The notes under the pieces: generated by a model | Seen by the model: only the letters and a program-made list of their open reading frames with translations | Told to the model about the DNA's origin: nothing | The model's database searches: none | Source of the DNA: Phycisphaerales bacterium | GTDB taxonomy: Bacteria > Planctomycetota > Phycisphaerae > Sedimentisphaerales > Anaerobacaceae | NCBI GenBank assembly: GCA_039679525.1 | Contig: JBDKUU010000806.1 | Span: 1-41,669 of the forward strand | Direction of reading: 5' to 3' | Length of the DNA: 41,669 bases | Position numbers and translations under genes: made by a program | In this document: piece by piece, positions 7,119-41,475 of the stretch | How the letters are laid out: every line of letters starts with the position of its first letter | Position numbering within the stretch: position 1 is the first letter of the stretch

Positions 7119-7166
7119 ATCTGCGTTCATCCGCGTCCATCTGCGGTTCCATCCTCTGTGCCTACA
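7119..7166. repeat. Intergenic mini-repeat of the GTTCATC(C/T)GC family plus a CTCTGTG remnant
   Basis: ATCTGCGTTCATCCGCGTCCATCTGCGGTTCCATCCTCTGTGCC. Confidence 0.7.
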
Positions 7167-7995
7167 TCTTCCGATTGCTGCCGGGACACCGCTTGTCCCG
7201 CTCGCCGCTCTTGCCCGTGAAGATCATGCCGTCCGTGTCGTGCGGCATGAGGCCCTTGGCACTCACCGGGATCGCGTGCCCGCAGTCCGGGCATGCAACG
7301 CGGGGGCGGCTGCCCTGCCGCGGCGACTTCGCCTGTGGCATGGATGCAGCCGGTGGGTGACGGAAGACATGCTGATTGCACACATTCGCCATGCCGACCA
7401 CCATATCCCTCTTCGGGCTGCTCAAGCAGCGGCACAGGTTCGATGCCGCCCTGTGCATGCACGTCTCACAGGTCCGCCTTTGCGCGGGCTGAGGACCCGC
7501 AGGAGCTGGGGGGCACGGCGGTAGTTTGCTGCGAAGTGCCTCCTGCTCCTGTGCCAGATCCCCGATCATCGGCTCCGGGGATGGAGTCGCGCCGGCCGCC
7601 TGGTCGAACGGACTGGCGAGGTCCACGATGATCGAGCCGTCGATCCACCGCTCGGCCTCGTAGCTCACCGGCTCCTTCGGGATCAGGCCAAGATCCTTGA
7701 ACCCGCCCACCGTCCCCACCCGGGCACTTACGCCCTGGCCCTTGCCCGGCATCATCATCTTGAGCGAGCCGTTCACGGCACCGGCGGACGGCATCAGCCG
7801 CAGGATGCGGACCTGATCGTGATGCTCGATCCGCAGGTACGGCTTGTCCTTCGGGATCTCCCGCGTCAGTTCCGCACTGATCGTCAGATTGCCCACCGGC
7901 GTGATCGTGACGAACCGGCCCTTGATCGACCGCCCGCCCTTGCCGCGGTTCGGGTACAGCGTCCAGCCATCCTCGGGAATCGTGATCTGCCTCAT
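7162..7995 (-). CDS. Hypothetical protein with a C-terminal Cys-rich region
   Basis: A 277-aa ORF with CETCMH...CRC...CNQH...CPDCGH. No family recognised. Confidence 0.5.
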   Translation of the reverse strand: MRQITIPEDGWTLYPNRGKGGRSIKGRFVTITPVGNLTISAELTREIPKDKPYLRIEHHDQVRILRLMPSAGAVNGSLKMMMPGKGQGVSARVGTVGGFKDLGLIPKEPVSYEAERWIDGSIIVDLASPFDQAAGATPSPEPMIGDLAQEQEALRSKLPPCPPAPAGPQPAQRRTCETCMHRAASNLCRCLSSPKRDMVVGMANVCNQHVFRHPPAASMPQAKSPRQGSRPRVACPDCGHAIPVSAKGLMPHDTDGMIFTGKSGERDKRCPGSNRKM

Positions 7996-8014
7996 ACGGT
8001 CAGTCCTTTCGGCT

Positions 8015-9163
8015 TCACGCCTTCCAACTGAGATATACCTGTTTCATCCCACATGCCTTTGCCGCGATCCGTGCCAATTCGTCCCGACTGACCCGGCAAA
8101 TCACCCCTTTATGATGAATAGCTACATTGTCCCCAACCTGGTCCATGCAGGTGATCGCCAGCGAGAACTTCACCTTCAGATTTCCCCGCTTCTTCCGATC
8201 CCCTCGAACCGCCTCCCCAATCAGATCGATGTCCAAACAGCCGAACCGAAGAGACCCCTGCCATTCGTTCTCTACGTTCGTTGCGTCCTTGTAACTCAGG
8301 CTCGCATCTTCCGTTGGCAGGGGCCCGTGCCCGTGCCGTGTCGTGTACGCTCTCGTGACGTAGACCACGTCGAGTTCCGATATCCCCGCAGATTCGCAGA
8401 TCGTGACGATGTTCGGCAAGCCCGTCCTGCTCCGTGTGACGTGCGGGAAAAAACGAAACGTCTCGTCGAGACAGAGCCCCTGAGAACCTTCGAAGATAAC
8501 CGTGTTCCACCGCTCGAGTTCCGATGCCAGCATTGGCCTGGCCGCCGTGTGGAACGCGGCAGCGCTGTCCATGAACTCGTCGAATAATAGCGAAGATGCA
8601 CATGCCTGCCGCAGGTTGTCCGAAGGAACCAAACCCAAAGACGCCAATCGATTCGGAAGGTAGACGTCGCGGATCGCCCGCACTTTTTCGGCAAAGTCTT
8701 TACACTCCATGTTCCACGCGAACAGTGGAAATTTTCCCTCGCACAATCTGACTACAGTCTCATTCACCCCGTAGCCGCAGGACCCGTGCCGTTGTGATCC
8801 GCGAGCGCGCTCCACTTCCCGATTGATGAGCATATCGTAAGGCGTCGTGATCGGGCTTGCGGGGTCCACGTAGAATTTCGGTTCGACGTATTGCCCAAGG
8901 TCCTTGTTCTCTCCGATCCACAGGAGTGGGTTGCAGATGAAGAACCGGGATAGATAAGTCGCAGAACCGTCCAGCGTCCCGCTGCCGAAGTGATGAAAGA
9001 CGTGCCCCACGCCGTCCTCTCGCACGACGGTGTGGCCGGCCTGGGGGCCGCCGTTGTAGCGAACCACAACGGACGGCCCTTTGGCCTGTGACGCAAAGAC
9101 GTGCGTCATTCTGCCTTTGCCCTCGTCACCGAACGCACTACCGATGATCGCCATAGCTTTCAT
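8015..9163 (-). CDS. Adenylosuccinate-synthetase family protein (PurA/PurZ-like)
   Basis: MKAMAIIGSAFGDEGKGRM (GDEGKG P-loop), YNGGPQAGHTV (AGHT His), FEGSQG and TRHGHGPLPTE. The ATG at 9163 forms an ATGA overlap with the vWA gene stop. The Asp/IMP loops diverge from E. coli PurA. Confidence 0.75.
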   Translation of the reverse strand: MKAMAIIGSAFGDEGKGRMTHVFASQAKGPSVVVRYNGGPQAGHTVVREDGVGHVFHHFGSGTLDGSATYLSRFFICNPLLWIGENKDLGQYVEPKFYVDPASPITTPYDMLINREVERARGSQRHGSCGYGVNETVVRLCEGKFPLFAWNMECKDFAEKVRAIRDVYLPNRLASLGLVPSDNLRQACASSLLFDEFMDSAAAFHTAARPMLASELERWNTVIFEGSQGLCLDETFRFFPHVTRSRTGLPNIVTICESAGISELDVVYVTRAYTTRHGHGPLPTEDASLSYKDATNVENEWQGSLRFGCLDIDLIGEAVRGDRKKRGNLKVKFSLAITCMDQVGDNVAIHHKGVICRVSRDELARIAAKACGMKQVYLSWKA

Positions 9164-10071
9164 ACATCGACCACCGTGATTCCTCCGCACGCCGTTCGCT
9201 TGGACAGCCCGGAAATCGCCTGTCTCACCACGACGCCGGTGCTGCCGTCCCATGAGGCCGCCACATTCTCGGCATTTTGCCCCTCATTCACCTGCATGAT
9301 CGAAACGATGACCTCTCCGAGACGGTTATGATCGGACACTTCAATGGCCCGCTCCCCCAGCAACTCCCTCCATTTCGCGATGGCATTCTGCTGTCTCGTC
9401 GCCGAAGTCGGCGTGATGAGGTGGAACACGTTCCAGTCACACGAGACTTCATCCAGGAGATCCTCGATGGCAACATCCGCTTCAACTGTCCCAGCCATGA
9501 ACCTTTGGATTTCTTCGCGAGTCAGGACCGGCAAAGGGGATTCATCTCCCACCGTGAAGAGATACCCCATCCGATTTCTCTTGATGATCGCGTCACACTT
9601 CGTCTTGTGGGCGGCGAACCACCACAGGATCGGGTACGATTCCCCCCCATTTCCGCCGCCGTTCCCTTCGATGAAGAACTTCTCGATCTGTTGGGCGAGA
9701 CGGATGTCTGCCTCGAATTGCGTGGTCTGAATCGGCGCATCGTCGCATGTGGCATCTCCGATCGCGGCCAACAACACATGCGGGTCCGTCACCGGTTTTC
9801 GGTCGTAGATGCCTTGGATGATGATTCCCAGCGACTTCTTGATGATCGTCGTAGCGAGCATCCCCATCGAACCCGTCTCATCCACCCCAATAATAACCGG
9901 GGTGGATTGCGGATTGGCTGGCGAATCACACGATTCCCGCACGCCGAACTTCGCCGGGTTCAGGTCATCGTGACAACCCGAACGATTGGTGAAGATGTCC
10001 TCTTGCGACTTGCCTGCGATGGACTTCGAATAATCCGTGTACACACTGTCATTCCATGTTGCATTTCCCAT
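9160..10071 (-). CDS. von Willebrand factor A (vWA) domain protein
   Basis: MIDAS-like VIIGVDETGSMG followed by a Rossmann-like alternation pattern. Size is 303 aa. Confidence 0.6.
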   Translation of the reverse strand: MGNATWNDSVYTDYSKSIAGKSQEDIFTNRSGCHDDLNPAKFGVRESCDSPANPQSTPVIIGVDETGSMGMLATTIIKKSLGIIIQGIYDRKPVTDPHVLLAAIGDATCDDAPIQTTQFEADIRLAQQIEKFFIEGNGGGNGGESYPILWWFAAHKTKCDAIIKRNRMGYLFTVGDESPLPVLTREEIQRFMAGTVEADVAIEDLLDEVSCDWNVFHLITPTSATRQQNAIAKWRELLGERAIEVSDHNRLGEVIVSIMQVNEGQNAENVAASWDGSTGVVVRQAISGLSKRTACGGITVVDV

Positions 10072-10110: not shown

Positions 10111-11136
10111 TCACAATGTCAGCCCTTTCGGCTTCTCCTGCACGCGGCAGGACTCGGGGAAGTCCAAGACGTCGTGCGTCACTCGTCGCCAGTCGCTCGT
10201 TGGTCCCTGCTTCATCCAGACCGCGACCCCTGCATTCTGGCACTGCTCCACCATTTCCGCGGCCGCCGCCCACCAGCCCCCAGGGTCTTCCGCCGCCCAT
10301 CGGCCCGGCCTGCCGCCCGGCAGCTTCTCGCAGCCGATCACAACCCAGTCGAGGCGTGGATCTGGGCCGAACGGGTTGTGTACGGCGGAATAGTCGTGGA
10401 CACAGCCATCCTCACTCGCGCCGCAGTTGGGACATTCCCAGTGGCCGTCCACGTCGTCAGGCCCATCATACTCTTTGGCCAGCCCACCCTCCGGCGTATC
10501 GTTGTCACGAAATCCGAGCCAGCCGCAATCGCTGCACTGGACGTCGGCCAGGTATTTCAATAATCCGTTGCCGATTGGCTCGATCAACGGCTCGAAGCTC
10601 ACGCCTCGCATCACCGCCGGAATCCGAACGAGTGTCTCGATCCGGTCCAGATGCTTCGGCGACTCGACCGAGACCATCAGGATCACATGGCGAAACGCAT
10701 CAGGCCACAGCCAGTATGGTGGGGGCCTGTGCTGGTACCACTTTATGAACTCCGCCATCCGCTCGACGCACTTCGTCAGGACCATGAACCGCTGCTCGGG
10801 ACACGTGGCCATCGTGTCGAAGACGCGGGCTATGTACTCCAACGGCACCCGCTCGTCGAACAGATCGGATTTGCTGTTCACGAAGATGAGCTGCGGACCT
10901 CGCCAATGGCGCGGCAGGTCAAGGTTGGACTCCAGCAACTCCACTTCGCCGGACCATCGCAACGCGCCATGCGAGTCTCGCGAGATAACCTTGGCCGCCG
11001 GGCCACCAGGGAACCGCCCCGCAATCCGGGCCAGGCTCGGCAAGGCCCAACAGTGCTCGCAACCCTCGGACCGCTTCTCGCAGCCCAAGGTCACGTCCCA
11101 GGTCTCGTCACAGTATGGAATCTCAGTATCAGCCAT
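10111..11136 (-). CDS. Phage Gp37/Gp68 (DUF5131) family protein with an inserted zinc ribbon
   Basis: N-terminus IPYCDETWDVTLGCEKRSEGCEHCWA is the family signature. Extra segment: CSDCGW...CPNCG. Confidence 0.7.
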   Translation of the reverse strand: MADTEIPYCDETWDVTLGCEKRSEGCEHCWALPSLARIAGRFPGGPAAKVISRDSHGALRWSGEVELLESNLDLPRHWRGPQLIFVNSKSDLFDERVPLEYIARVFDTMATCPEQRFMVLTKCVERMAEFIKWYQHRPPPYWLWPDAFRHVILMVSVESPKHLDRIETLVRIPAVMRGVSFEPLIEPIGNGLLKYLADVQCSDCGWLGFRDNDTPEGGLAKEYDGPDDVDGHWECPNCGASEDGCVHDYSAVHNPFGPDPRLDWVVIGCEKLPGGRPGRWAAEDPGGWWAAAAEMVEQCQNAGVAVWMKQGPTSDWRRVTHDVLDFPESCRVQEKPKGLTL

Positions 11137-11146
11137 TCAAACCCCT

Positions 11147-11178
11147 TTCACCATAGAGACACAGAGATCACAGAGATC
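11147..11178. repeat. Mini-repeat of the CACAGAG family (TTCACC...CAGAGA orientation on +)
   Basis: TTCACCATAGAGACACAGAGATCACAGAGATC, 10 nt upstream of the start at 11136. Confidence 0.75.
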
Positions 11179-11370
11179 GTAGATGTTTGAGAATCACGTC
11201 ATGGACCGCCGCCTTGCACCAACCACACCCCGGCCTCTCAGGGCCAAACGGACTATCCCTGTGCATCAGCATGAGACGGCTCGCCTTTTTTCCGTTGCCG
11301 CCATCCGTGAATAGTTCCTCTGTAATCTCGTCCGCAAGCCTGTCGTATTTTCGTTCCATCCTGTTCTGCA
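11168..11370 (-). CDS. Small hypothetical protein
   Basis: ATG at 11370 (MQNRMERKYDRLADEITEEL...CGWCKAAVHDV) directly abuts the repeat at 11371..11400. Confidence 0.4.
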
Positions 11371-11400
11371 TCTCCGTGTCCTCTGTGCCTCTGTGGTGAA
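11371..11400. repeat. Mini-repeat of the CTCTGTG family (…GGTGAA orientation on +)
   Basis: TCTCCGTGTCCTCTGTGCCTCTGTGGTGAA. It is the inverted partner of 11147..11178, and the pair flanks the small gene. Confidence 0.75.
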
Positions 11401-11495
11401 TCATTTCAGGCCGTCCTTGTTCCCCGGCCGAAGCCACCCGGCGACCGCCGCCGCCATCCACAAGACCGGCCAGACTATCGCCCCGATCAGCCGCT

Positions 11496-11888
11496 TCATC
11501 GTTCTTCGCTCGGCAACTTCATTGCCCGCAGACATTCGACCAGCCGCTTCCTTGCCGTGGCGGTATCCCCGTTCGTGATCTCCGTCACCGCCTGCTCGAT
11601 CTGACCGATGACAACGCCCTCTTCGACACCGAACAGCAGAAAGCCGTCAATCCACTCCACACCGTTGTCGTCCCAGAGTTGTTTTGTGCGCAGGGCGTCC
11701 TCCTGCTCAGCGACCCACTGCCGATACAGCCAGTCCCGACTCCGCCGGCCGTGGACCCCGGCCGCGTACTTGCCGCCCCAGATCCGGGGGGCCTGCCCGA
11801 GCAGCCAGAGGAACAGACCATTCCACGACCGCTGCCCGAGGAACACGCCCACAACCCTGAGTACCGCCCTACCGATCAAACCCCACAT
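11496..11888 (-). CDS. Membrane-anchored hypothetical protein
   Basis: The ATG at 11888 is preceded by GAAAGGAGTAACC (SD). N-terminal segment is hydrophobic (MWGLIGRAVLRVVGVFL). Confidence 0.5.
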   Translation of the reverse strand: MWGLIGRAVLRVVGVFLGQRSWNGLFLWLLGQAPRIWGGKYAAGVHGRRSRDWLYRQWVAEQEDALRTKQLWDDNGVEWIDGFLLFGVEEGVVIGQIEQAVTEITNGDTATARKRLVECLRAMKLPSEER

Positions 11889-11905
11889 GGTTACTCCTTT
11901 CAATT

Positions 11906-11936
11906 TCTCTCGCAGAGACGCGGAGACGCAGAGGTC
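11906..11936. repeat. Mini-repeat of the GAGACGC family
   Basis: CTCTCGCAGAGACGCGGAGACGCAGAGGTCA. Confidence 0.7.
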
Positions 11937-11991
11937 AAAGAGCCGCCGGACGGTTCACGCCGCCCGGCGGCTTCCGAGGAGGTGTATGAGA

Positions 11992-12501
11992 CTATGGATT
12001 CAGCCAGATCGTCACGCCGAACAGGGCGCGGACCTCCGGCTGCTCGTCCGCCGAGCCCTCCGGACGCACCCACTCGGCCCAGATCGTCGGCTGAACGAAC
12101 CGGTCGGGGAACAGCATGGCGCCCGTCGCCAGCAGGAAACTCATATCGGCGCTGTCGTTGATCTCCCACGTCACGCCGATCCGGCCGTAGGTCGTCAAGG
12201 GCACGTCCGGCAGGTCGATCGCGGGCAGAACTGTACCCAGGATCTTGCGGTAGGCCTCGTCCAATCGGAAGGTCGCCACGGGCCCGAGTGCAAAGTTCTC
12301 GCCCGTGTCCTCACTAACCGCCGAGTCCGTCACGAACAGCAATCCCACACCCCCGTTCGGATCGGGCCACCAACTTGCGGCGATCTGCACGTCCTCGTAG
12401 TCGAAAGCCCCGTCCACCGTCCATGTGCCCAGGTCCATCGAACCCCAGCACGGCACCACAACCAACAAACCGATAATCCACTGAAACGTCCTTGCTCTCA
12501 T
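11992..12501 (-). CDS. Secreted or envelope protein with a signal peptide, function unknown
   Basis: MRARTFQWIIGLLVVVPCWGS is signal-like. SD AAAGGA lies upstream. The protein has a beta-rich composition. Confidence 0.5.
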   Translation of the reverse strand: MRARTFQWIIGLLVVVPCWGSMDLGTWTVDGAFDYEDVQIAASWWPDPNGGVGLLFVTDSAVSEDTGENFALGPVATFRLDEAYRKILGTVLPAIDLPDVPLTTYGRIGVTWEINDSADMSFLLATGAMLFPDRFVQPTIWAEWVRPEGSADEQPEVRALFGVTIWLNP

Positions 12502-12520
12502 GTTCGAATCCTTTCTAAAG

Positions 12521-12630
12521 AAGTTTGAAGTTTCAAGTTTGAAGTTTGAAGGTTATCCTCTCGCAAAGACGCGGAGACACAGAGGTCACGAAGAAGATGG
12601 TGTCTCGTGACTCGTGATCCGTGACTCGTA
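12521..12630. repeat. Composite spacer made of three different mini-repeat families
   Basis: (AAGTTTGA)x4 at 12521-12552, CCTCTCGCAAAGACGCGGAGACACAGAGGTCAC at 12557-12589, and GTGACTCGTGATCCGTGACTCGTA at 12606-12630. Confidence 0.75.
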
Positions 12631-13011: not shown

Positions 13012-13292
13012 TTTTCTGTGTCCTCTGTGTCGTCTGTGCCTCTGTGGTGCATCTCTTCCGCGAACGCCACACACACATCGCAGCCGACCGGGCAGTCGTC
13101 ATCTACCTTGAGCGGGCAGGGCTCGACGCCGCCGGGCTCCGGGATCAGAACCCTCGGCCGCTCGATCCCGTCGCCGCATAGGTCGAGGTCGCGGCCGCTG
13201 AGGTCGGGATTCGTCGCTCGGCTCTCGTCGCTCGCCATATCGAGCCGGACCGTCAGCAGGTCATCCATCGTCAGGTCACTCATCGGGTCCAT
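13008..13292 (-). CDS. Small acidic hypothetical protein
   Basis: A 94-aa ORF whose last ~14 residues (HHRGTDDTEDTEK) are encoded by the CACAGAG repeat. Its stop overlaps the next ATG (ATGA). Confidence 0.45.
   Translation of the reverse strand: MDPMSDLTMDDLLTVRLDMASDESRATNPDLSGRDLDLCGDGIERPRVLIPEPGGVEPCPLKVDDDCPVGCDVCVAFAEEMHHRGTDDTEDTEK
13013..13050. repeat. Mini-repeat of the CTCTGTG family
   Basis: TTCTGTGTCCTCTGTGTCGTCTGTGCCTCTGTGGTGCA. Confidence 0.75.
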
Positions 13293-13364
13293 CGTTCGTC
13301 ACTCGTCCCTCGTCGCTCGTCGCTCGTTTCGTATCTGCGTTCATTCGCGTTCATCTGCGGTTCC
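13291..13364. repeat. Composite spacer: CGTCGCTCGT family plus GTTCATCTGC family
   Basis: TCGTTCGTCACTCGTCCCTCGTCGCTCGTCGCTCGTTTCG followed by TATCTGCGTTCATTCGCGTTCATCTGCGGTTCCC. Confidence 0.75.
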
Positions 13365-13366
13365 CT

Positions 13367-13687: not shown

Positions 13688-13715
13688 AGTTACCCCTTAA
13701 AATGCAAGCAGCCAC

Positions 13716-13808
13716 TATCCCCGAATCCGTCCGATCCAGTTTCGTAGTCTTCTGAAAATCTGCCGCAGTAGACGTCTCATCATTTCCATCCTTCGCGTTC
13801 ATCTGCGG
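13716..13808. repeat. Direct duplication, copy 1: 5' region plus the first 24 codons of gene 13827..14114
   Basis: About 93 nt, nearly identical to 14041..14143. It encodes the truncated MEMMRRLLRQIFRRLRNWIGRIRG*. Confidence 0.85.
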
Positions 13809-13826
13809 TTCCCTTCCCCTTGTCAC

Positions 13827-14114: not shown

Positions 14115-14143
14115 CCTTCGCGTTCATCCGCGTTCATCTGCGT
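14041..14143. repeat. Direct duplication, copy 2, with one extra GTTCATCCGC unit
   Basis: See 13716..13808. There is one substitution plus a 10-nt indel. Confidence 0.85.
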
Positions 14144-14447
14144 TTTGCCCCGTCTTGCGCACGAGAAGTTCCGCAACTGCCGCTTCAAGCAACTCCCGTG
14201 TAGCGTCCAGTCGCTTTCGCAGGTCGCCACGTTCCCGAATGACATCATCCAGCCTGCCCACCAGTACCTTGTTCCGTTTCTCGTACTCCTCTGCGATTAA
14301 CTTCCAATCCGTCCACTCCTCACGAACCACCAACAACCACCGCTCCCGGCATCGCGTACACTCGATCTCCAGGCAGGTGCGCGGTTGGGGTTCTGAAAAA
14401 CAAACGTCATACTCCGGCAAAAGTGCCTTCTCTTTGTACTTCATCAT
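14124..14447 (-). CDS. Hypothetical coiled-coil protein
   Basis: A 107-aa ORF with a helical, charged C-terminal half. Confidence 0.45.
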   Translation of the reverse strand: MMKYKEKALLPEYDVCFSEPQPRTCLEIECTRCRERWLLVVREEWTDWKLIAEEYEKRNKVLVGRLDDVIRERGDLRKRLDATRELLEAAVAELLVRKTGQNADERG

Positions 14448-14892
14448 TTCCTGGGCTCTCCGTGTCTCTGTGGCGCATCATCCGGACCTCTGCCGCCGTC
14501 GGCGGCCGCTCCACCTCGAACAGGTGCAGCTTCACCGCCACACCGAACTGGAGTTGCCGCAATGTCTCGATGGCCTTGGCCTGTGTCGCCGCAATCACCT
14601 TCTGAAACCGGCAGACCTCGTCCACATGGCCGCTCTCGTACTCCGACCGATACCAGATCGTCCAGGCGGCGATGTTGTCCTCGGAATACTCCTCGCCCCG
14701 CTGGATCGCGAGCCGGACCACGTGCCGACACCCGCAGTGCGGGCAGTCGCCGCGATGGTCCACGACCTCCGGCAGTGCCCGAGTCGCCGGGGCCAGCGAC
14801 CCGGCCCGAGGGCGGGCGTTCGGGTTGCGGATCGTCGAGGGATCAGCCCCGAGCGGGGTCCTCTTCGAACGGGATACCGCCTTCCTGCCCAT
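14407..14892 (-). CDS. Hypothetical protein
   Basis: A 161-aa ORF containing CPHCGC. Its tail reads through the CTCTGTG repeat at 14456..14477. Confidence 0.45.
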   Translation of the reverse strand: MGRKAVSRSKRTPLGADPSTIRNPNARPRAGSLAPATRALPEVVDHRGDCPHCGCRHVVRLAIQRGEEYSEDNIAAWTIWYRSEYESGHVDEVCRFQKVIAATQAKAIETLRQLQFGVAVKLHLFEVERPPTAAEVRMMRHRDTESPGNDEVQREGTFAGV

Positions 14893-15670
14893 CAGTCCCT
14901 TCCGTGTTTTCGTCCTCGATCTTGTCGGGGTCCTCGCAGATCTTCGCTTCGATCGCCGCCATCACCTGCTCCCGCATCTTCGTCCGCCGAGCGACCAACG
15001 CCCGCTTGCCGTCCGCCGTGCCCGTCATCGGGATCTCGTCCAGCCAGGCCGCGATCCCGAGCTGCACGGCGTTCAACGCCGCCGTGCGCGAGGTGAACGC
15101 CGGGCCCTCCTTGGCATCGTGCTCCTGCGTGTAATTGCCGAGCCGGGCCAGCCAGCCGCTACGCCACTGGCCGGGACCCTCGTAGATCAGATCGACCGTG
15201 AGCTCCGCCAACTTCAACCCCTTGCACTTGATCGCGAACGAGTCGGAGTGCGGAATCTGCTTCTCTGTGTCCTCTGTGACGGGCTTCGCCTTTCCGAACA
15301 TCGTCGGCTGGATCTCCGTGATCGTCAGCAGGATCGGCGTATCGGCCGCACTCATCCTCTTGATCGCCGTGGCCCGCTCGTCCGGACTGTGGAACCCGCT
15401 GATCCGGAGCTTCTGCCCCTTCGTCCTACAGGACATGCTCACGAGCTTCACAACGCTCGTGATCGGCTCGATCTGGAGCTTCTTCTGCTCCGGCGCCAGC
15501 GTGATCCGGACCTTGTCGTCGCCGTCCGCCCGGATCAGCCGATCCAGCTCGCCCACCTGGTCCGCGGAGAAGTCGCACAGGTCCAGGTCGAGCTTCTCCT
15601 TCTCGCCGGCCACGGCCCAGGCGAGGATCTTCGTCTTCGTCGTCACGTTCATCCGTTGGATTCCTTTCAT
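14843..15670 (-). CDS. Hypothetical early protein with two domains joined by a repeat-derived linker
   Basis: A 275-aa ORF. The ATG at 15670 abuts the repeat. An internal VTEDTEKQ is encoded by the CTCTGTG element at 15261..15280. Confidence 0.5.
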   Translation of the reverse strand: MKGIQRMNVTTKTKILAWAVAGEKEKLDLDLCDFSADQVGELDRLIRADGDDKVRITLAPEQKKLQIEPITSVVKLVSMSCRTKGQKLRISGFHSPDERATAIKRMSAADTPILLTITEIQPTMFGKAKPVTEDTEKQIPHSDSFAIKCKGLKLAELTVDLIYEGPGQWRSGWLARLGNYTQEHDAKEGPAFTSRTAALNAVQLGIAAWLDEIPMTGTADGKRALVARRTKMREQVMAAIEAKICEDPDKIEDENTEGTDGQEGGIPFEEDPARG

Positions 15671-15672
15671 TT

Positions 15673-15762
15673 TTCACCACAGAGACACGGAGGTCACAGA
15701 GGGCGCGGATAGCTTGACGTCACTCCCTTGTTTTCTCCGTGTTCTCCGTGTTTCTGTGGTGC
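15673..15762. repeat. Inverted pair of CACAGAG-family elements separated by about 28 nt
   Basis: TTCACCACAGAGACACGGAGGTCACAGAGGG (15673-15703) versus TTCTCCGTGTTCTCCGTGTTTCTGTGGTGCA (15732-15762). Confidence 0.7.
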
Positions 15763-16173: not shown

Positions 16174-16350
16174 CACCACAGAGACACAGAGAACACAGAG
16201 AATAGATGTGCGATGGTCCAGCTCGTTGCCCGGCTCGCCGCCCTGGCCGCACGTGCACGCATGCGGGATCAGGGGCCAGAACCCGTCGGCACAACAGGGG
16301 CGGTCGCGAACGGCCCTTTTCTTCTCTGTGCCCTCTGTGCCTCTGTGGTG
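16174..16350. repeat. 29-nt inverted pair of the CACAGAG family enclosing 119 nt
   Basis: CACCACAGAGACACAGAGAACACAGAGAA (16174-16202) matches the reverse complement of TTCTCTGTGCCCTCTGTGCCTCTGTGGTG (16322-16350) at 26 of 29 positions. Confidence 0.75.
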
Positions 16351-16910: not shown

Positions 16911-16938
16911 GTCGGTGAAATCCCCTGCTCAGGGGACC

Positions 16939-18167: not shown

Positions 18168-18264
18168 TCGTCGCTCGTCACCCGTCACTCGTCGCTCTGG
18201 ATCTGCGTTCATCCGCGTTCATCTGCGGTTCCATCCTCCGTGTCCTCTGTGCCTTTGTGGTGCA
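18168..18264. repeat. Composite spacer with three mini-repeat families in a row
   Basis: TCGTCGCTCGTCACCCGTCACTCGTCGCTC, then ATCTGCGTTCATCCGCGTTCATCTGCGGTTCC, then CCTCCGTGTCCTCTGTGCCTTTGTGGTGCA. Confidence 0.75.
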
Positions 18265-18478: not shown

Positions 18479-18509
18479 CTCTCTGTGTTCTCTGTGACTC
18501 TGTGGTGAA
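18479..18509. repeat. Mini-repeat of the CTCTGTG family
   Basis: CTCTCTGTGTTCTCTGTGACTCTGTGGTGAA. Confidence 0.75.
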
Positions 18510-20144: not shown

Positions 20145-20174
20145 ATTCTCCGTGCCCTCTGTGCCTCCGTGGTG
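20145..20174. repeat. Left arm of the 30-bp inverted repeat flanking the SGNH cassette
   Basis: ATTCTCCGTGCCCTCTGTGCCTCCGTGGTG matches the reverse complement of 21271..21300 at 29 of 30 positions. Confidence 0.85.
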
Positions 20175-21270: not shown

Positions 21271-21300
21271 CACCACGGAGGCACGGAGGGCACGGAGAAT
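21271..21300. repeat. Right arm of the 30-bp inverted repeat flanking the SGNH cassette
   Basis: CACCACGGAGGCACGGAGGGCACGGAGAAT. Confidence 0.85.
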
Positions 21301-22076: not shown

Positions 22077-22103
22077 CCGCGTCTCCGCGTCTCTGCGTGA
22101 GAA
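22077..22103. repeat. Mini-repeat of the GCGTCTC family
   Basis: CCGCGTCTCCGCGTCTCTGCGTGAGAA. Confidence 0.7.
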
Positions 22104-22113
22104 TCTATTCCCA

Positions 22114-28344: not shown

Positions 28345-28348
28345 CGAA

Positions 28349-28753: not shown

Positions 28754-28786
28754 TGGATCTCCAAGCCATGCGGGACCTTACTGACC

Positions 28787-28828
28787 GCGTTGACTTTAAT
28801 GTCAACGAAGTCAATTCGGTCAATGTGG
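28787..28828. repeat. TTGAC/GTCAA mini-repeat spacer including the hairpin GTTGAC-TTTAAT-GTCAAC
   Basis: GCGTTGACTTTAATGTCAACGAAGTCAATTCGGTCAATGTGG. Confidence 0.7.
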
Positions 28829-28850
28829 TTCCTTCCCTTTCGTTCTTTCT

Positions 28851-31755: not shown

Positions 31756-31780
31756 CTGACTCCTTTCATCATTGGGACCT

Positions 31781-31841
31781 GATTGACCCCCTTGACCCCA
31801 TTGACGCCATCGTCAATCCGGTCAACAAGGTCAATGCGGTC
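31781..31841. repeat. Palindromic array: 3 x TTGAC(C) then 3 x (G)GTCAA at 9-bp spacing
   Basis: GATTGACCCCCTTGACCCCATTGACGCCATCGTCAATCCGGTCAACAAGGTCAATGCGGTC, between the major tail and chaperone genes. Confidence 0.75.
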
Positions 31842-31851
31842 CCTCTGCCGG

Positions 31852-32365: not shown

Positions 32366-32393
32366 TCTCTGTGGCCCGTGGCCCGTGGCCCGC
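32366..32393. repeat. Mini-repeat (GGCCCGT)x3
   Basis: CTCTGTGGCCCGTGGCCCGTGGCCCGCG, followed on the minus strand by AAAGGAG and the ATG at 32352. Confidence 0.7.
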
Positions 32394-33567: not shown

Positions 33568-33597
33568 TCTCTGTGTCCTCTGTGTCTCCGTGGTGAA
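33568..33597. repeat. Mini-repeat of the CTCTGTG family, abutting the start codon
   Basis: TCTCTGTGTCCTCTGTGTCTCCGTGGTGAA. Confidence 0.75.
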
Positions 33598-33601
33598 TCG
33601 A

Positions 33602-35614: not shown

Positions 35615-38600
35615 GGGGCCCTCTGGATGAAGACGATGTTGTGGTACCAGTGGATCTCGCGAACGTCGCGAGGGGCATAGATCCTGTTTTCCAATCCAAT
35701 GTGGAGACAGCGAAATTCGTCATCCTCCAGTTCATTGTCCTCCACCTCGGGATCATCTTGATCGAACGATCGGTGGATGTCCTCGATCACGTACCAGCCG
35801 AAGGGCCGAACGCTCGGCCAGAGCCAGTCGAACAACCGCCGCTGGTCCTCGGGCGCGTGCGAGGCGTCGTCCACGATCAGATCGTAGGGCCCCGCGGCGA
35901 TGAGCTTCTGGACGTCGTCGAGCCTCGTCTCGTCCCCGACGATGACCTGGGTATTCGGCAGGTCACCCGCGAACTTCTTCCACCGATCCGGATCGCAGTC
36001 GAAGCCGATGACATGTGTCCGCTCGGGGAAATATGCTCGCCAGATGGCCAGGGAGGAACCGTGCGCCAGGCCGCACTCCAGGACCCGTCGGGCACGCTTG
36101 CGGATCGCGGACAGGTGCCTGTCGTAGTGCACGTGGTAGTTATGGACCCAGTGCTTGTCCGTCGCGTTCCCGCGGTGTACGACGTACTGCTGCTCCATCA
36201 ACTTCTGGATCGGGCCCGCCTCGGGCGGCGCCATCCGGTGCAGATGGTATTGTGGTGAGAGGATCATCGCACTGCGTGCATCGCCGAGCAGCCGGCCGAT
36301 GGCCCGCTTGCCCTGAATAGTCCCCAGACGCTGGAGGATCACGAGTCGGCGATACCCCTTCCACAGGATCAACCGGCCCTCGTGCTCGTAGAATTCCAGC
36401 GGGCTCTTGAGACCGTTGTCGCGGATGTCGAGGACGAGCCGTGCGGCCTTTTGCATCTTGCCCTTCACGGTCCGCAGCTCCTGCCGCGTCGGGATCCGAA
36501 CGCTGCCCCGGCGGATGTGACTGATGAGGTACTCGCGATAGCGACCCTCATAGTCCGGCTTGCCGGCCAGGACGGAATCGACGAACTCGCCGAACGCCGG
36601 CCAGAAGATGTCCAGCCGGAAGGACTTCGCCGGTTCGCTGATCCGGTGCCGGCCCACCCAAAGATCCTCCACACTCACGCGGACCGCCTTGCAGGCGTTG
36701 TGATGGTGAGGGGCCTGGATCGCGGGGCCGTAGTCGGCCGCAGGCCACCCCGGCGGATGAAACCGCTCCAGCAGCCAGGCGAAACTGTATTTCTGGAACC
36801 GCCATTTGTCCCCGAGCCAGAGGTCGTGACTATGCTCGATGCTCCTGGGCTTGACCGTCGCGCCCATCGCGTAGGGGGCCTTGCCCCGGTTCCAATGGGC
36901 GTACCAGGTCCGCTTATTCTCCAGGAGGCGACCGCCCGAGAGCCATACTTTACAGGCGAGTTCCGCCCCTTCCTGGCCGAAATGGCCGTGGCCCTCGTCC
37001 CAGCCGCCCCAATAGGTCCACAGGTCCCGCTCGATCAGGAAGCAGCTGCCCGAGCAGGTCATCGTCTCGGAGACCTCTTCGTCCTTGTGGGCCTCGGCCC
37101 ATTCGGGCCAGGCCATCGAGCGAAGGCCGATCCCATCCTCCGTGACGTGCGTCAGACGCCGGCAGTCGGTCTTACTGTGTTCCCGCCGCTGCCAGGAGAC
37201 CGTATCCAGATCGTACCGGCTGCCCACGACGGCGCCGCCCGGTTCCCATGCCCGGATCAATTCGGCATCCATGTCATCCGCGACGGCGCAGTGGGCGTCG
37301 AGCTTTAAGATGAATTGGCCCTTGGCTTCCTTCAGCAGGCGATTCAGCGTGGGACGCATGCCTAACTTCGGACCGGGCAAGACGCGAACTCGCTCGTCAT
37401 CGAATCGCGGGACCGGCTGATCCTCACCATCGAGGCCAATGAGGATCTCGAAGTCATTATACAGATGGGCCAAGAGGTCTTTGACTGTAGCCTCTAGGAA
37501 CTGCTCATTGCGGGCCGGGATCAGAACGGAGATCGTCGGAGCCTCGGGGACAAGGGGGGCGAGTTTCTTGAGGCCAGTCTTGACGGCCTCCACTTGCCGC
37601 TCTGCACGCTCTATGCCTTCTTCAAATGCCTTCTGTTCTGCAGATAGAAAGGACCCCATTGACCTCGTTGACCTTGTTAACCTTTTCGACTTGACCGCTG
37701 GAGCCTGGATTACCCGCCTGGCCTTTGCATCGACCCTGTCGATATCGTTTTCCGTCATCCTTGGCTCATTCTTTCTCTGTGTCCTCTGTGGCTCTGTGGT
37801 GATTTTCCTCTTTGGCCAGGTGGGGACCGGTGCGAATCTGTCGGCGATCCACTCGAGCGGCCGTGTCTGCAGCGGCCAGCGACCACCGGTCCATAGATCG
37901 ATCGAGTACTGGCGTGCCTTCTCCTGGTCGCTGCCGTGGATCTTGTACGGGAAGCTCTCCCCGTCCCCGCAGCGAAACAGGTGTGCAAACCACGTATTGC
38001 GGTTCACCACATGCCGGCCGCCGGAGAGCCACGCCTTGCACGCCATTTCCACACCCATCTGACCCCAGGACCCATGCCCTTCGTCCAGCCCTCCAAGCTC
38101 CCAGAATCGATCCCAGTGCATGAACCAGCAGGCGCCCTGGCCCGTCATTACGTCCGCGATCTCGCCCTGCCGCTTGGCCCAGGCCTTGAATTGGCGATAC
38201 TCGTCTTCGTATTCGCGACCACCCCTGCGGAAGTCCCTTGCCCCACACTGCCCGCAGTTTGCATCCCCGGCGTCCGGATCCTTCGCCGCTCCACACTGAT
38301 TGCAGATGTGCGTTCCCTGACCCCAGTACTGGACCCGCAGGGGCCGCTCCTTCGCCTCGGGAGACCGGAAGAACATCCAATCCGTTTTTCGCTTCCAGTT
38401 CGGCTCAAAGACGATGTCGTACTCGTAGTCCGTGACGCCGCATGTCGGGCACGGCCGGTGACTCCCGCGATTATAGAACCGGCCCTTGCACTTGCGGCAG
38501 ATGAGGTCGTGGGCGTGCAGATTGTACATCGTCGGGATGACGGTCCAGTCGTACTCGCAGTCCCGCATGAGCTTGACGTCGAAGCCGTCCTCCAGCATCG

Positions 38601-38856
38601 AGTGGCCGTCCGTCTTCAAGATAAACTTCGCCGTCGAGAGCCGGGCGGCCTCATTGACGCTCTGCCGCTGACCCATCGGCTCGGCGTGGCGGATCACGCG
38701 AACACCCGGTAGATCGGGCACGACCGGCCCGGACTCCTGGCCGTCGATCACGACGATGATCTCCGTCTCACCGCGAATGGCGTTGTGGATCGATTCCACC
38801 GTGTGGGCCAGGTACGCCTCCGCCCTGGCCGGGATGATGACGCTAACATCGGGCAT
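35611..38856 (-). CDS. Multidomain glycosyltransferase-glycosyltransferase-methyltransferase (2 x DxH GT-A plus a class-I SAM MTase)
   Basis: GT-A 1 (aa 1-345): VSVIIPARAE, KTDGHS, WGQMGVEMACKAWLSGG..WFAH, with CxxC x4 inserts. GT-A 2 (aa 441-705): ISVLIPARNE, KLDAHC, FGQEGAELACKVWLSGG..WYAH. MTase (aa ~890-1081): VLECGLAHGSS, GFDCDP, DLIVDDASH, GWYVIED. Confidence 0.75.
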   Translation of the reverse strand: MPDVSVIIPARAEAYLAHTVESIHNAIRGETEIIVVIDGQESGPVVPDLPGVRVIRHAEPMGQRQSVNEAARLSTAKFILKTDGHSMLEDGFDVKLMRDCEYDWTVIPTMYNLHAHDLICRKCKGRFYNRGSHRPCPTCGVTDYEYDIVFEPNWKRKTDWMFFRSPEAKERPLRVQYWGQGTHICNQCGAAKDPDAGDANCGQCGARDFRRGGREYEDEYRQFKAWAKRQGEIADVMTGQGACWFMHWDRFWELGGLDEGHGSWGQMGVEMACKAWLSGGRHVVNRNTWFAHLFRCGDGESFPYKIHGSDQEKARQYSIDLWTGGRWPLQTRPLEWIADRFAPVPTWPKRKITTEPQRTQRKNEPRMTENDIDRVDAKARRVIQAPAVKSKRLTRSTRSMGSFLSAEQKAFEEGIERAERQVEAVKTGLKKLAPLVPEAPTISVLIPARNEQFLEATVKDLLAHLYNDFEILIGLDGEDQPVPRFDDERVRVLPGPKLGMRPTLNRLLKEAKGQFILKLDAHCAVADDMDAELIRAWEPGGAVVGSRYDLDTVSWQRREHSKTDCRRLTHVTEDGIGLRSMAWPEWAEAHKDEEVSETMTCSGSCFLIERDLWTYWGGWDEGHGHFGQEGAELACKVWLSGGRLLENKRTWYAHWNRGKAPYAMGATVKPRSIEHSHDLWLGDKWRFQKYSFAWLLERFHPPGWPAADYGPAIQAPHHHNACKAVRVSVEDLWVGRHRISEPAKSFRLDIFWPAFGEFVDSVLAGKPDYEGRYREYLISHIRRGSVRIPTRQELRTVKGKMQKAARLVLDIRDNGLKSPLEFYEHEGRLILWKGYRRLVILQRLGTIQGKRAIGRLLGDARSAMILSPQYHLHRMAPPEAGPIQKLMEQQYVVHRGNATDKHWVHNYHVHYDRHLSAIRKRARRVLECGLAHGSSLAIWRAYFPERTHVIGFDCDPDRWKKFAGDLPNTQVIVGDETRLDDVQKLIAAGPYDLIVDDASHAPEDQRRLFDWLWPSVRPFGWYVIEDIHRSFDQDDPEVEDNELEDDEFRCLHIGLENRIYAPRDVREIHWYHNIVFIQRAP
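37658..37802. repeat. Intergenic-type repeat module (TTGACC family plus CTCTGTG family) embedded in frame in the 1081-aa ORF
   Basis: ATTGACCTCGTTGACCTTGTTAACCTTTTCGACTTGACC (37658-37696) and TCTCTGTGTCCTCTGTGGCTCTGTGGTGA (37774-37802). Confidence 0.8.
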
Positions 38857-39887: not shown

Positions 39888-39899
39888 GCTCGAACCCTT

Positions 39900-41444
39900 T
39901 CACTTCCAGCACTTGGCCGGTTTGCCCTTGTCGTGAAACTCGCCCGGCGACTGATAGACCGGCTGCATGTCCTCGCCCGGCCAGGCCGCCATCAGCTCCA
40001 GGTGACCGATCACAATGCGATTGGCCAGGAGCACCTTCTTCCGTACCTTCTCCAGTTGCCTCCAGAACCAGATATCGTCGTCGATCCGGCCGGGACCCCA
40101 CTGGTTGTCGATGTTCGGCTGGCCCCAGAACCAGGGATGCGGCACGTCGAGCATGTCGGACACACGGAGCAGCGTCAGGCCGAAGTGGCCCGTAGCCACG
40201 GGGATCGTCTCGGCCTTCAATTCCGCCTGCGGGACGTCCGACCTCGGCTGGCCGGACCGGGTCTTGAGGCTCGTCAGGATCTTGTGCGCAACCCGACCCG
40301 TCTGAATGGGCACGACCGCCGCCGCCTCCGGATGCTGACACATCAGGCGAATCAGACCCTCGACGTCGGCTCGCGTGAACAGCGTGTCATAGTCCACCGT
40401 CAGCACATAATCCGCCCCGGAGTCGATCATCGATTGAATGCCCCGCTCCAGGCACTGACCCCAGAAGGCACCCTGCACATTGATGAGCGGAATTCGCATG
40501 GGCCAAAGCACCTGCTGGGCACAGGTCATATTGTCCTGGAATCCCAGCCGCGGGACACTCATCACTGCGGCGATCCGAAGGCCCTGGGGCGGCTTGAGCG
40601 ACGCGACCTCCGGCGGCCGGCAGGCGGGCTCCCTCGCCGGGTCCTTCGTCCCCGAGGCGAAGCCGCGGCATTCGGAAAGCCCCTTCGGCGATTCCGTCAG
40701 CGGCCAGGCGTCCACGTCCACGAAACCAACCGCTTGCAGCATCGATCCGAGACATTGCAGCGTCGGGGCCCACCAGTTGGAGGGGTTGTTCCCGTACTCC
40801 GCGCCGGGATAGAACTCCATCACCATCTCGTTGTCCGCGAAGCCCTTGCCCAGTCCACCGCGATAGGGACTGTACACGTCGAGGGACGCGGTCTCGACAT
40901 AGATCGAGCCGTCGCACACCGCCGCGATCCGCTCCAGGGCCAGCAGAGGATGTCGCAGGTGGTAGATCGTGCCGAAGAAAAAGACGACATCAAATCTCCC
41001 ATACAACGTCGCGTAAATGTCGTAGACCGATGCCTCTTTGCGGAGGACCGCCTGGTTGGCATTATTCAGCCATCGGTTCTTGATGCCCCCGTCCGTCTGC
41101 GTGAATCCCAAGGCCTCACGGCACAGGTCAAACGTCGCCCACTTGCTCTTGCGATCGATTGCCAGGCCGGCCTCATCGCTGAAATCGTCTATCGCGACGA
41201 CCTCGCGGGCCCCCCGCTTCAGGGCCTCCCAGGTCCAGTAGCCGTCCCATGCCCCGATATCGAGCACCCGTTTGCCCCTTAGATCGGCCGGGATCGAGTA
41301 CCGCTCGGCGCACAGGGGCGAGAAACCCGGCGTCACGATCCCGCCGGGCAGCTCGATCTTGTGATACCAGAAGGGAATCGCATCGACTTTCGCTTGTAGC
41401 TCTTGCACATCCATCGTTCGTTCTCCGTTCATCCCTGCATCCAT
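39900..41444 (-). CDS. SAM-methyltransferase / GT-A-like glycosyltransferase fusion
   Basis: N-terminus: IPFWYHKIELPGGIVTPG, VLDIGAWDGYW and FFFGTIYHLRHP (CmoB/TIGR04290-like MTase). C-terminus: VDYDTLF, HFGLTLLR and DDDIWFWRQL...VIGHL (GT-A-like). Start may be 41444 or 41414. Confidence 0.65.
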   Translation of the reverse strand: MDAGMNGERTMDVQELQAKVDAIPFWYHKIELPGGIVTPGFSPLCAERYSIPADLRGKRVLDIGAWDGYWTWEALKRGAREVVAIDDFSDEAGLAIDRKSKWATFDLCREALGFTQTDGGIKNRWLNNANQAVLRKEASVYDIYATLYGRFDVVFFFGTIYHLRHPLLALERIAAVCDGSIYVETASLDVYSPYRGGLGKGFADNEMVMEFYPGAEYGNNPSNWWAPTLQCLGSMLQAVGFVDVDAWPLTESPKGLSECRGFASGTKDPAREPACRPPEVASLKPPQGLRIAAVMSVPRLGFQDNMTCAQQVLWPMRIPLINVQGAFWGQCLERGIQSMIDSGADYVLTVDYDTLFTRADVEGLIRLMCQHPEAAAVVPIQTGRVAHKILTSLKTRSGQPRSDVPQAELKAETIPVATGHFGLTLLRVSDMLDVPHPWFWGQPNIDNQWGPGRIDDDIWFWRQLEKVRKKVLLANRIVIGHLELMAAWPGEDMQPVYQSPGEFHDKGKPAKCWK

Positions 41445-41446
41445 CG

Positions 41447-41475
41447 TCTCTGTGTTCTCTGTGGCTCTCTGTGGC
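41447..41475. repeat. Mini-repeat of the CTCTGTG family
   Basis: TCTCTGTGTTCTCTGTGGCTCTCTGTGGC, 2 nt upstream of the ATG at 41444. Confidence 0.7.

Follow-up and report, generated by a model that had tools for sequence, protein, structure and literature searches.

Why does a stretch of DNA that looks like a temperate siphophage carry runs of very short tandem repeats in so many of its intergenic spacers? The stretch, hereafter the window, comprises 41,669 nucleotides (41.7 kb, 62% G+C) of contig JBDKUU010000806.1 in the Phycisphaerales bacterium assembly GCA_039679525.1. An earlier note on it had described at least seven families of mini-repeats and suggested that they might act as ribosome-binding leaders, RNA-processing or terminator structures, operator arrays, or elements like the repetitive extragenic palindromes (REPs), shared with the host. 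We find that the mini-repeats represent complete, halved or decayed copies from a repeat superfamily that is widespread, so far undescribed and common to hundreds of phages and bacteria of many phyla. Beyond the earlier description lie the kinship of the families within this superfamily, an architecture of inverted doublets, and a link to genes encoding small GxxExxY proteins.

The tandem mini-repeats are real. The main family, read on its CACRGAG strand, follows the 27-nt pattern TTCACC-ACRGAG-N-CACRGAG-NN-CACRGAG, that is, three tandem units at fixed spacing. Searched as CACCACRGAGNCACRGAGNNCACRGAG with at most 2 mismatches, it matches the window 13 times and does not match once in 100 shuffles. 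A main-family array covers 27–33 nt (aTTCACC-ACAGAG-N-CACAGAG-NN-CACAGAG-AA). With a spacing variant at 41448–41476 and partial copies at 7154, 14458, 15263, 12578 and 32367, the family comes to about 15 full and 4–5 partial loci in both text orientations, which agrees well with the approximately 17 loci counted before. From base 7000 on, 31 arrays of period 6–11 were found, against 2.5 ± 1.8 in 60 second-order Markov simulations. By our own gene models, which leave 12% of the window non-coding (those for foreign loci are crude), array bases amount to 126 per kb of sequence outside genes but 32 per kb within them, which makes the arrays about four-fold denser outside genes rather than equally dense in both. 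An array is present in 16 of the 23 spacers of at least 12 nt; the intergenic bias thus stands, although "almost every spacer" was a somewhat generous wording. Some arrays (13015, 14458, 15735, 18236) reach into the final ~18 codons of the gene upstream and yield C-terminal tails such as HHRGTEDTEK*, and only two main-family arrays lie inside genes proper, at 15263 and, in frame in a protein linker, at 37775. The phage copies (~15) occur as empty doublets, as one doublet around a 66-codon open reading frame (ORF), or as singles filling entire stop-to-start spacers.

The arrays share one build, namely a short head, which is TTCACC, TTAACC or GGAACC, and behind it three (at times four) tandem units of ~7 nt with 1–3 free letters between them. 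The units vary as CGCRGAG, CACGAAG, GCAGATG+AAC and ATTGACC. The GAGACGC repeats correspond to the main unit in its CGCRGAG variant, and other loci have mixed arrays. The GTTCATCYGC repeats (family 3) read GGAACC-GCAGATG-AAC-GCGGATG-AAC-GCAGAT on the gene strand, with the same head type and three units and a longer spacer, while at the TTGACC loci three ATTGACC units per arm, with GGAACC/GGTCCC heads, form inverted doublets. All of the families named earlier are present where they had been placed, some as partial copies, but several of them are largely one superfamily and should not be counted separately.

The array is not phage-specific. Loci outside the window were picked by the exact 27-mer pattern, and the following counts are lower bounds rather than copies per genome. 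The exact main pattern occurs in at least 120 viral stretches (IMG/VR) and at least 120 bacterial genome stretches (GTDB species genomes). Carrier contigs of more than 250 kb belong to Planctomycetota, Acidobacteriota, Bacteroidota, Alphaproteobacteria and SAR324, including one Gemmataceae contig of 2.2 Mb, and the pattern is also found in the isolates Geothrix limicola (174-kb contig) and Lyngbya sp. CCY1209 (82-kb contig). The consensus of 335 copies is aTTCACCACAGAG[A/G]CACAGAG[G/A][A/G]CACAGAGAA, often with a fourth unit 4–5 nt further on, and the A/G choice is correlated within a single array. One consensus therefore holds across at least five phyla (judged by the large contigs) and phages, and no lineage specificity is seen. 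The bacterial neighbour genes that were checked are housekeeping genes (AcrB, nuo subunits, MiaB, Tgt). Sixteen more viral stretches carry family 3, often in the form of inverted doublets. No Rfam family matched the window at gathering score, and with E ≤ 1 allowed in 11000–21500 a tRNA-like match was the only one. A text search of the literature for six 15-mers of the main array in both orientations gave nothing, and 10-mers matched primers only. Other palindromic repeats (GTCATCCCGA..GGATCTGC.., GTCATGGCCGGGC.. and GTCATTGCGAGGAGCACAGCGACG) are nested in doublets or lie beside arrays (doublet interiors of loci L141 and L113; locus L173), so that several repeat families share the same spacers.

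Outside the window, arrays mostly come in inverted pairs. Among the pairs within 300 nt in the viral and genome loci, 108 have their heads outward and 16 have the opposite arrangement; the window holds three head-outward pairs plus the TTGACC-type doublets. Doublet interiors range from 9 to ~280 nt and often contain GC hairpins between A and T runs. Elsewhere, doublets sit at the edges of intergenic spacers with their heads outward, and in co-directional spacers the head points toward the nearer gene. Arrays with the purine-rich strand along transcription lie a median of 13 nt past the upstream stop and 106 nt before the next start, and arrays of the opposite orientation a median of 28 nt before the next start. 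The window doublets are predicted to fold strongly (z −6.4 to −7.6), whereas for single arrays a folding energy of 0 kcal/mol is predicted. The two arms of a doublet pair at their free spacer positions with a frequency of 0.40, against 0.38 in randomly paired arrays, and the pairable positions number 4.34 of 6 on the transcribed and 4.45 on the antisense strand. As the free positions are not paired beyond chance, it is the unit sequence that is conserved and not the helix.

A gene partner emerged from the more distant pairs: on bacterial chromosomes from many phyla, doublets bracket a small GxxExxY gene. Six array pairs lie 300–4000 nt apart, and four of these six (420–500 nt apart) enclose a gene for a GxxExxY protein of ~130 residues (Pfam PF13366, NCBIfam TIGR04256); these four loci are from Pyrinomonadaceae, Phycisphaerales, Flavobacteriales and the locus L239. 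When 80 GxxExxY loci were gathered from metagenomes by protein similarity alone, 76 had usable flanks, and an array lay within 160 nt upstream in 52 of the 76, inverted downstream in 46 and on both sides in 37 (wrong orientation in 10 and 9). The upstream array lies a median of 15 nt from the GxxExxY start, and many at 0 nt (..CACGGAGATG..), a geometry equal to that in the window. The window arrays are also the same as the GxxExxY-flanking arrays in sequence and architecture, with an ACC-type head, at least 2–3 CRCRRAK units, 1–3 nt spacers and inverted orientation. An isolate, Kallotenue papyrolyticum, has a GxxExxY gene flanked by arrays (JAGA01000003.1; locus L342, 1501–1905), between genes for an SNF2-family helicase and an MmeI-like methyltransferase/endonuclease.

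The GxxExxY family has at least 7981 clusters, with 60–65% identity between phyla, and its E..D..ExK..Q residues are at least 99% conserved. Its structure model, a confident one (predicted local distance difference test 90.7), gave no significant Foldseek match, the best-ranked ones being the PD-(D/E)XK nucleases Cas4, lambda exonuclease and AddAB, and no solved structure related by sequence was found. From the model and the conserved residues we consider the protein a small predicted nuclease, probably of the PD-(D/E)XK fold. The function of PF13366 is not known, and the family has undergone multiple transfers between divisions (Steczkiewicz et al., PMC3424549). We found nothing on flanking repeats in the literature on GxxExxY or PF13366. 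Some details of these loci may be added. The Kallotenue locus looks like part of a defence operon, and the annotated GxxExxY start there is upstream of the array, so that the array is annotated as the N-terminus MNHKDTKDTK. In four metagenome contigs (L255, L265, L266, L287) the gene is found at the same site between methylmalonyl-CoA mutase subunit-like genes, with the arrays reversed and their heads toward the GxxExxY gene. Two doublets enclose other small ORFs, encoding a DUF6335 protein (L124, 1686–2084) and a product without family match (L115, 1570–2007); GxxExxY is thus the commonest cargo and not the sole one.

The arrays turn over quickly. The IMG/VR contigs L241 and L242 share synteny with 27–41 kb of the window at 70–82% nucleotide identity, and at their syntenic junctions arrays are kept, missing or replaced, with the entire spacer differing. 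The array at junction 33569 is present in L241, and L242 has an unrelated A-rich spacer; that at 41448 is replaced by GATGAAC x2 in L241 and by CAAC-type repeats in L242. At 32367 there is a hairpin in L241 and a Shine-Dalgarno (SD) sequence alone in L242, and the TTGACC doublet at 31776–31848 is kept in L241, with a small hairpin in its place in L242. The linker of the 1085-codon ORF holds arrays 37775 and 37659 in the window, a TTGACC doublet in L241 and neither in L242, and the ORF is open in all three genomes despite the differing repeats. In addition, a contig of the landfill metagenome (X4), a close variant of the phage, lacks the 330 bp from 18163 to 18492, that is, ORF 18209–18469 with its flanking arrays, and its deletion joint lies inside array 18481–18507. 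We conclude that the arrays are dispensable and fast-changing.

The window itself suggests a role in translation. An ATG follows within 15 nt of the GAG end in 9 of 13 window arrays, against 0.19 for random positions. Of the places where the earlier note saw an array abut the ATG, the gap is 1 nt at 33567 and 0 nt at 11371, and arrays adjoin the ATG at 13011 and 15670 as well; at 41444, also named before, an ATG does follow, but a relative has 41414 as the conserved start. All nine unpaired window copies place the T-free, purine-rich strand in the mRNA, as do 10 copies against 4 in tight spacers of other phages, and the second unit puts a GAGG/GGAG core ~9–11 nt before an abutting ATG. Together with the absence of predicted folding in single arrays and the geometry at GxxExxY genes, this makes ribosome-binding leaders plausible. 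It is not a general role, however, because arrays elsewhere are found in either orientation and relatives express the same genes without arrays. In the bacterial and viral loci, moreover, an ATG follows the array at the chance rate (0.25 and 0.18, against 0.19–0.22).

Taking these observations together, we lean toward the view that the arrays are boundary modules akin to REPINs (REP doublets forming hairpins) or to miniature inverted-repeat transposable elements (MITEs), the unstructured purine-rich strand of which is used as a ribosome-binding leader; we would put this at only slightly better than even. A reading of the REP/MITE kind is suggested because the arrays are dispensable, fast-changing and cross-phylum, form inverted doublets and many singlets, and are tied to a nuclease-fold gene that they flank. 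The modules would spread or be exchanged as DNA, either by trans-mobilisation, with a host GxxExxY nuclease as the most obvious candidate protein, or through recombination of one copy with another. They would persist only where they are nearly harmless, in spacers, last codons and protein linkers. In tight phage spacers, selection may have kept the orientation that places the T-free purine strand in the mRNA where, unfolded and with GAGG/GGAG ~9–11 nt before the ATG, it could serve as a leader, as it apparently does for GxxExxY genes. The leader role in the phage is the weaker of the two parts. Among the possibilities raised in the earlier note, REP-like elements shared with the host come closest, given the number of viral and bacterial stretches that carry the arrays and their REPIN-like inverted doublets. 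We also consider, more tentatively, that the arrays may be cis-acting sites of a new class of non-autonomous element resembling REPINs in its workings but driven by another engine, that GxxExxY nucleases may recognise head-plus-three-unit arrays and move or copy them across phyla into phages, and that phages may keep them as leader, insulator or recombination-linker modules promoting cassette-like exchange of small genes.

Several observations weigh against boundary modules of this kind. There is no clean pair of a filled and an empty site, the entire spacer differing in the relatives, and no target-site duplications were visible by eye outside the heads in ~70 of 93 doublets. No GxxExxY gene is found in the window, in its relatives or in 120 viral loci, so that any mobilising protein would have to be host-derived. 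GxxExxY identity barely tracks array type (57.9% within and 56.3% between types), and thus gives no sign of cognate protein–site pairs. The conserved units with free spacers point to a sequence-specific reader, which could equally be a regulator, and a passenger would not be expected at a density as high as 15 copies in 41 kb. As for the leader, the SD-like cores lie 9–11 nt or 0 nt from the ATG, and window genes without arrays have the better placed AAAGGAG at 5–8 nt.

Could one dedicated function account for the arrays instead? They might be translation-initiation leaders like the start-associated sequences (SAS) of Cluster K mycobacteriophages, a portable multi-SD module being what is selected and the other arrangements being by-products. 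We find this rather unlikely, although the start adjacency in the window, the shared geometry of the GxxExxY genes with many gaps of 0 nt, the unfolded single array and the bias in orientation, both in the unpaired window copies and in the tight spacers of other phages, all speak for it, as does the location of 12 of 15 arrays in the non-structural region at 11–21 kb, which recalls SAS (PMC3203893). What it leaves unexplained is that purine-strand arrays elsewhere adjoin the upstream stop and are far from the next start, that ATG follows them no more than by chance, that many copies are empty doublets around terminator-like hairpins, that relatives keep the same genes without an array, and that one copy sits in a protein linker. 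A second function, control of early-gene transcription through binding sites of a DNA-binding protein (operators or stoperators, or a nucleoid or partition-type protein), we regard as improbable. Tandem sites with a period of 8–9 bp do recall the operators of ribbon-helix-helix proteins, the MetJ boxes among them. The unit cores are conserved, but their spacer letters are free and complementary between doublet arms at chance only, an argument for protein sites that was made likewise for extended SAS (PMC3203893), and array 20148 lies beside a promoter-like site. Yet the same sites are found beside unrelated housekeeping genes in many phyla, and an all-against-all BLAST of the ORFs at 240 loci, intended to find a common neighbour gene as partner, gave no large family (the largest cluster covers 10 of the 240 loci). 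The operator arrays proposed in the earlier note thus find no support, there being no regulator gene common to the loci and no coherent regulon among the neighbours. Ten small window genes scanned against Pfam contained no DNA-binding domain, most being without any family match; close relatives show no conservation of the arrays at syntenic junctions; and if the phage DNA has 2-aminoadenine, the grooves of these A-rich sites would be recognised differently than in host DNA.

We give still less credence to the idea that the doublets are RNA hairpins for processing, stabilising or insulating transcripts, comparable to the RNase III-cut stem of an intervening sequence, with the singles being decayed halves. 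Strong folding of the doublets would fit, as would the GC hairpins with flanking A and T runs in their interiors, the presence of doublets between co-directional genes within operons (e.g., nuo genes) and the precedent of the Coxiella intervening sequence, a selfish ORF inside a stem (PMC4990558). But pairing at the free positions of the arms does not exceed that in random pairs, and in this the transcribed strand has no advantage over the antisense strand; most window copies are single and unstructured; and a need for pairing would leave the conservation of the units across phyla unexplained. RNA-processing or terminator structures, as suggested earlier, fit the doublets only. Local slippage or composition effects without shared origin can hardly be the answer. 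Some minor families, the AAACTTC heptamer at 12520 and the CAAC repeats of L242, indeed have no counterpart in the other loci compared, but for the main family and family 3 such an explanation is already refuted by the shuffles and simulations described above and by a head plus 8-then-9-nt spacing that is identical in hundreds of unrelated genomes.

The closest relatives of such boundary modules among known systems deserve a comparison. With the REPINs and their REP-associated tyrosine transposases (RAYTs) (Bertels and Rainey, 2011, PMC3116915; PMC3337134) the arrays share short extragenic repeats, an inverted doublet with the capacity to fold into a long hairpin, many remnant-like singlets, and a location between genes, also inside operons; in both, a small nuclease-type gene is flanked by copies, but most copies by far are found without it. 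On the strength of the flanking nuclease-fold gene and of the doublets and singlets, we suggest that the arrays relate to GxxExxY as REPINs relate to RAYTs. The REPIN arm, however, is a short imperfect palindrome with a GTAG head, whereas the array arm is a head with three tandem direct units, and the RAYT partner is an HUH tyrosine transposase (IS200/IS605-like) described as single-copy, whereas GxxExxY is a PD-(D/E)XK family that is very large and has been transferred many times. REPIN–RAYT systems are described as being inherited vertically and lineage-specific, whereas the arrays have one consensus across phyla and are dense in phages, and their mobility is something we infer. Since the arm lacks a palindrome, the gene encodes something other than a RAYT and the sequence is shared among lineages, we class the arrays not as REPINs but as a separate, new form of the REP/MITE kind.

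Among phages, the closest precedent in position and copy number is provided by the SAS and extended SAS of Cluster K mycobacteriophages (Pope et al., 2011, PMC3203893), which occur in 11–19 copies, are asymmetric, lie few nucleotides from mostly ATG starts, for the most part in one orientation and in the non-structural half of the genome, contain an SD-like core, at times overlap the upstream stop, and have linked inverted repeats that do not support RNA pairing. The window copies, too, lie near starts in one orientation. But SAS is a single 13-mer tied to start codons and essentially absent from the host and other clusters, whereas the arrays are triple repeats found in bacterial chromosomes and unrelated phages, where they are not tied to starts. 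The stoperators of Cluster A (PMC9283540, PMC6550527) likewise occur as many asymmetric copies in stop-to-start spacers with a bias in orientation relative to transcription; they are single 13-mers, specific to a phage group and bound by its own repressor, whereas the arrays are cross-phylum with no evident repressor. In the 23S rRNA intervening sequence of Coxiella (PMC4990558) a small ORF is held in an inverted-repeat stem, deemed selfish and tolerated in an essential transcript. Its cargo, however, is an S23p four-helix-bundle protein and its site is in rRNA, and tandem-unit arms have not been described for it. Rickettsia palindromic elements and MITEs are short, non-autonomous inverted-repeat elements, and the former insert in frame in protein-coding genes; arrays 37775 and 37659 resemble them in this respect. 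The arrays have inverted arms too, but no target-site duplications were visible, their length is not discrete (interiors of 9–280 nt), and no transposase was identified. The short tandemly repeated repetitive (STRR) heptamer sequences of heterocystous cyanobacteria, reportedly described by Mazel et al. in 1990 as intergenic with several unit families per genome, share these traits and the tandem heptanucleotide units with the arrays. STRR arrays are longer simple tandem runs in one lineage, and we know of no head, three-unit rule, doublet or gene association in them.

If the reading is correct, binding or cutting of a defined conserved DNA or RNA site would be a first testable function for GxxExxY/PF13366, a family without known role. 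One consensus across phyla and phages is in itself unusual, since REP-like elements are regarded as specific to a lineage. In annotating phages, one can use the arrays as markers of gene boundaries and of likely true starts, and they account for unusual C-terminal ..HHRGTEDTE.. tails and for inserts that sit in frame in linkers. If the arrays are portable leaders or recombination linkers, they would bear on the shuffling of small accessory genes among phages. We point out that cultivable carriers (Geothrix limicola, Kallotenue papyrolyticum, Lyngbya sp. CCY1209) make experiments possible.

Table 1. Repeat arrays and recognisable genes of the window (SD, Shine-Dalgarno sequence; GTA, gene transfer agent).
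Feature	Position	Strand	Remarks
CACAGAG unit x1 + family-3 array	7119..7160	-	GGAACC-GCAGATGGAC-GCGGATGAAC-GCAGAT; right after stop 7162
Main-family array	11149..11175	+	CACCATAGAG A CACAGAG AT CACAGAG; GGTGAA head toward start of gene 10111-11136 (-)
Array pair	11149-11175 / 11372-11398		brackets 66-codon ORF
Main-family array	11372..11398	-	TTCACC head touches TGA of upstream ORF; ATG 0 nt past third unit
GAGACGC/GCGTCTC repeat	11911..11933	+	CGCAGAG A CGCGGAG A CGCAGAG; upstream of ATG 11903
AAACTTC heptamer x4.6 (AAGTTTGA family)	12520..12551	-	upstream of ATG 12501
Related 30-mer (partial GCGTCTC copy)	12557-12588
CACGAGT/CACGGAT heptamer repeats x4.3	12600..12629	-
CGTCGCTCGT/GTGACTCGT family	12600, 13292, 18168-18193
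Main-family array, four units	13015..13049	-	final codons of ORF 13008-13292 (..HHRGTDDTEDTEK*); immediately before ATG 13011
Family-3 array	13335..13361	-	GGGAACC-GCAGATGAAC-GCGAATGAAC-GCAGAT; then heptamer repeats 13292-13327, ATG 13292
Family-3 array	14118..14144	-	upstream of ATG 14114; partial duplicate 13795-13805
Two-unit partial array	14458..14475	-	CGCCACAGAGACACGGAG; ATG 14447 8 nt on
Two main-family units	15263..15279	-	within gene 14843-15670, translated ..TEDTEK..
Inverted doublet	15675..15761	-	arrays 15735-15761 and 15675-15701, 33 nt apart; RNA fold z = -6.6; head GGTGAAAA touches ATG 15670
Inverted doublet	16174..16350	-	arrays 16324-16350 and 16174-16200; RNA fold z = -7.6; interior 123 nt, terminator-like hairpin 16302-16315 (+)
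Main-family array	18236..18262	-	final codons of ORF 18209-18469; then family-3 array 18200-18227 and heptamer repeats 18168-18193
Main-family array	18481..18507	-	ATG 18469 11 nt on; deletion joint of landfill variant inside
Main-family array	20148..20174	-	divergent region; beside promoter-like TTGCGT-17-TATACT with upstream TG (+)
Main-family array	21271..21297	+	begins 3 nt past stop of (+) gene 20347-21267
CGCRGAG variant array	22077..22104	-	TTCTCAC-GCAGAG-A-CGCGGAG-A-CGCGGGG; right after stop of tail gene 22114-23733
TTGACC-type inverted doublet	28773..28832	-	GGAACC/GGTCCC heads
TTGACC-type inverted doublet, 3+3 units	31776..31848	-	RNA fold z = -6.4; between stop 31852 and SD of gene starting 31755
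GGGCCAC x3 + one CACAGAG unit (GGCCCGT family)	32367..32392	-	between stop 32395 and SD of gene starting 32352
Main-family array	33569..33595	-	fills 34-nt spacer, stop 33602 to ATG 33567; in L241, not L242
GGTCAA-type array	37655..37700	-	in frame, same protein linker as 37775
Main-family array	37775..37801	-	in frame (..KITTEPQRTQRKN..), linker of 1085-codon ORF 35611-38856
Main-family array, 9/10-nt spacing	41448..41476	-	past conserved hairpin; ~30 nt ahead of conserved start 41414
PurZ-like adenylosuccinate-synthetase homologue	8015-9253	-	best PHROG match phrog_1211 (PurZ-type), E 2.8e-56; PF00709
Tyrosine integrase	16939-17976	-
GTA-like tail genes	22114-28380
Tape-measure gene	28851-30839
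Connector genes	32395-34641
Glycosyltransferase/methyltransferase fusion	35611-38856		1085-codon ORF
DUF5131 gene			among recognisable window genes

Nearly all genes of the window lie on the minus strand, apart from a short plus block at ~19.1–22.1 kb. A megablast search found no near-identical phage in GenBank, and a search of metagenome runs found the sequence only in DNA metagenomes from wastewater and landfill. Given the PurZ-like gene, 2-aminoadenine may replace adenine in the phage DNA, and protein reading of the A-rich arrays would then change. Adjoining the integrase gene there is a weak Rfam tRNA match (32.8 bits) at 16839–16910 (+), within a region of ~10-fold raised metagenome contig depth (16739–17105); ARAGORN found no tRNA in the window. 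The segment 16839–16910 looks like a candidate attP core matching part of a host tRNA gene.

The window also contains repeats of other kinds. A 66-nt unit is repeated 3.7 times at 93% identity at 13397–13638 (-) within ORF 13367–13687, where it encodes leucine-rich-repeat-like GNSGITDAGLAHVPNLT units. A duplication of ~100 nt on the minus strand covers 13720–13805 and 14040–14125, such that the leader and first ~30 codons of gene 13827–14114 (MEMMRRLLRQIFRR..) recur downstream as a truncated copy, and both duplicates have GCAGATGAACGCG ahead of them. Repeats of 75, 150 and 198–225 nt with 78–88% identity at 24787–25533 (-) fall in the 921-codon tail gene 23733–26498 (beta-helix and BR0599 domains), and a long run of period 5/10/15 (GCCTT/GCCGC, ~40 units) at 2983–3439 stands outside the array finding.

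With respect to promoters and other known signals, the array itself was rejected as a sigma-70 promoter (TTCACC as −35, GAGAAN as −10), the spacer being 20 nt and the −10 poor, and a scan giving 3 sites against 3.3 expected. By eye, none of sigma-54, DnaA-box, parS-half, Rex, CRP, CsrA, TRAP or Chi sites fits the conserved positions and spacing. Separate promoter-like sites are present at 20185–20215 (+) in the divergent region (TTGCGT-17-TATACT with TG ahead, an extended −10) and upstream of the integrase gene at 18019–18027 (-) (extended −10, TGGTATAAT), and a simple promoter scan also gives TTGACA-17-TATCAT at 18825–18853 (+).

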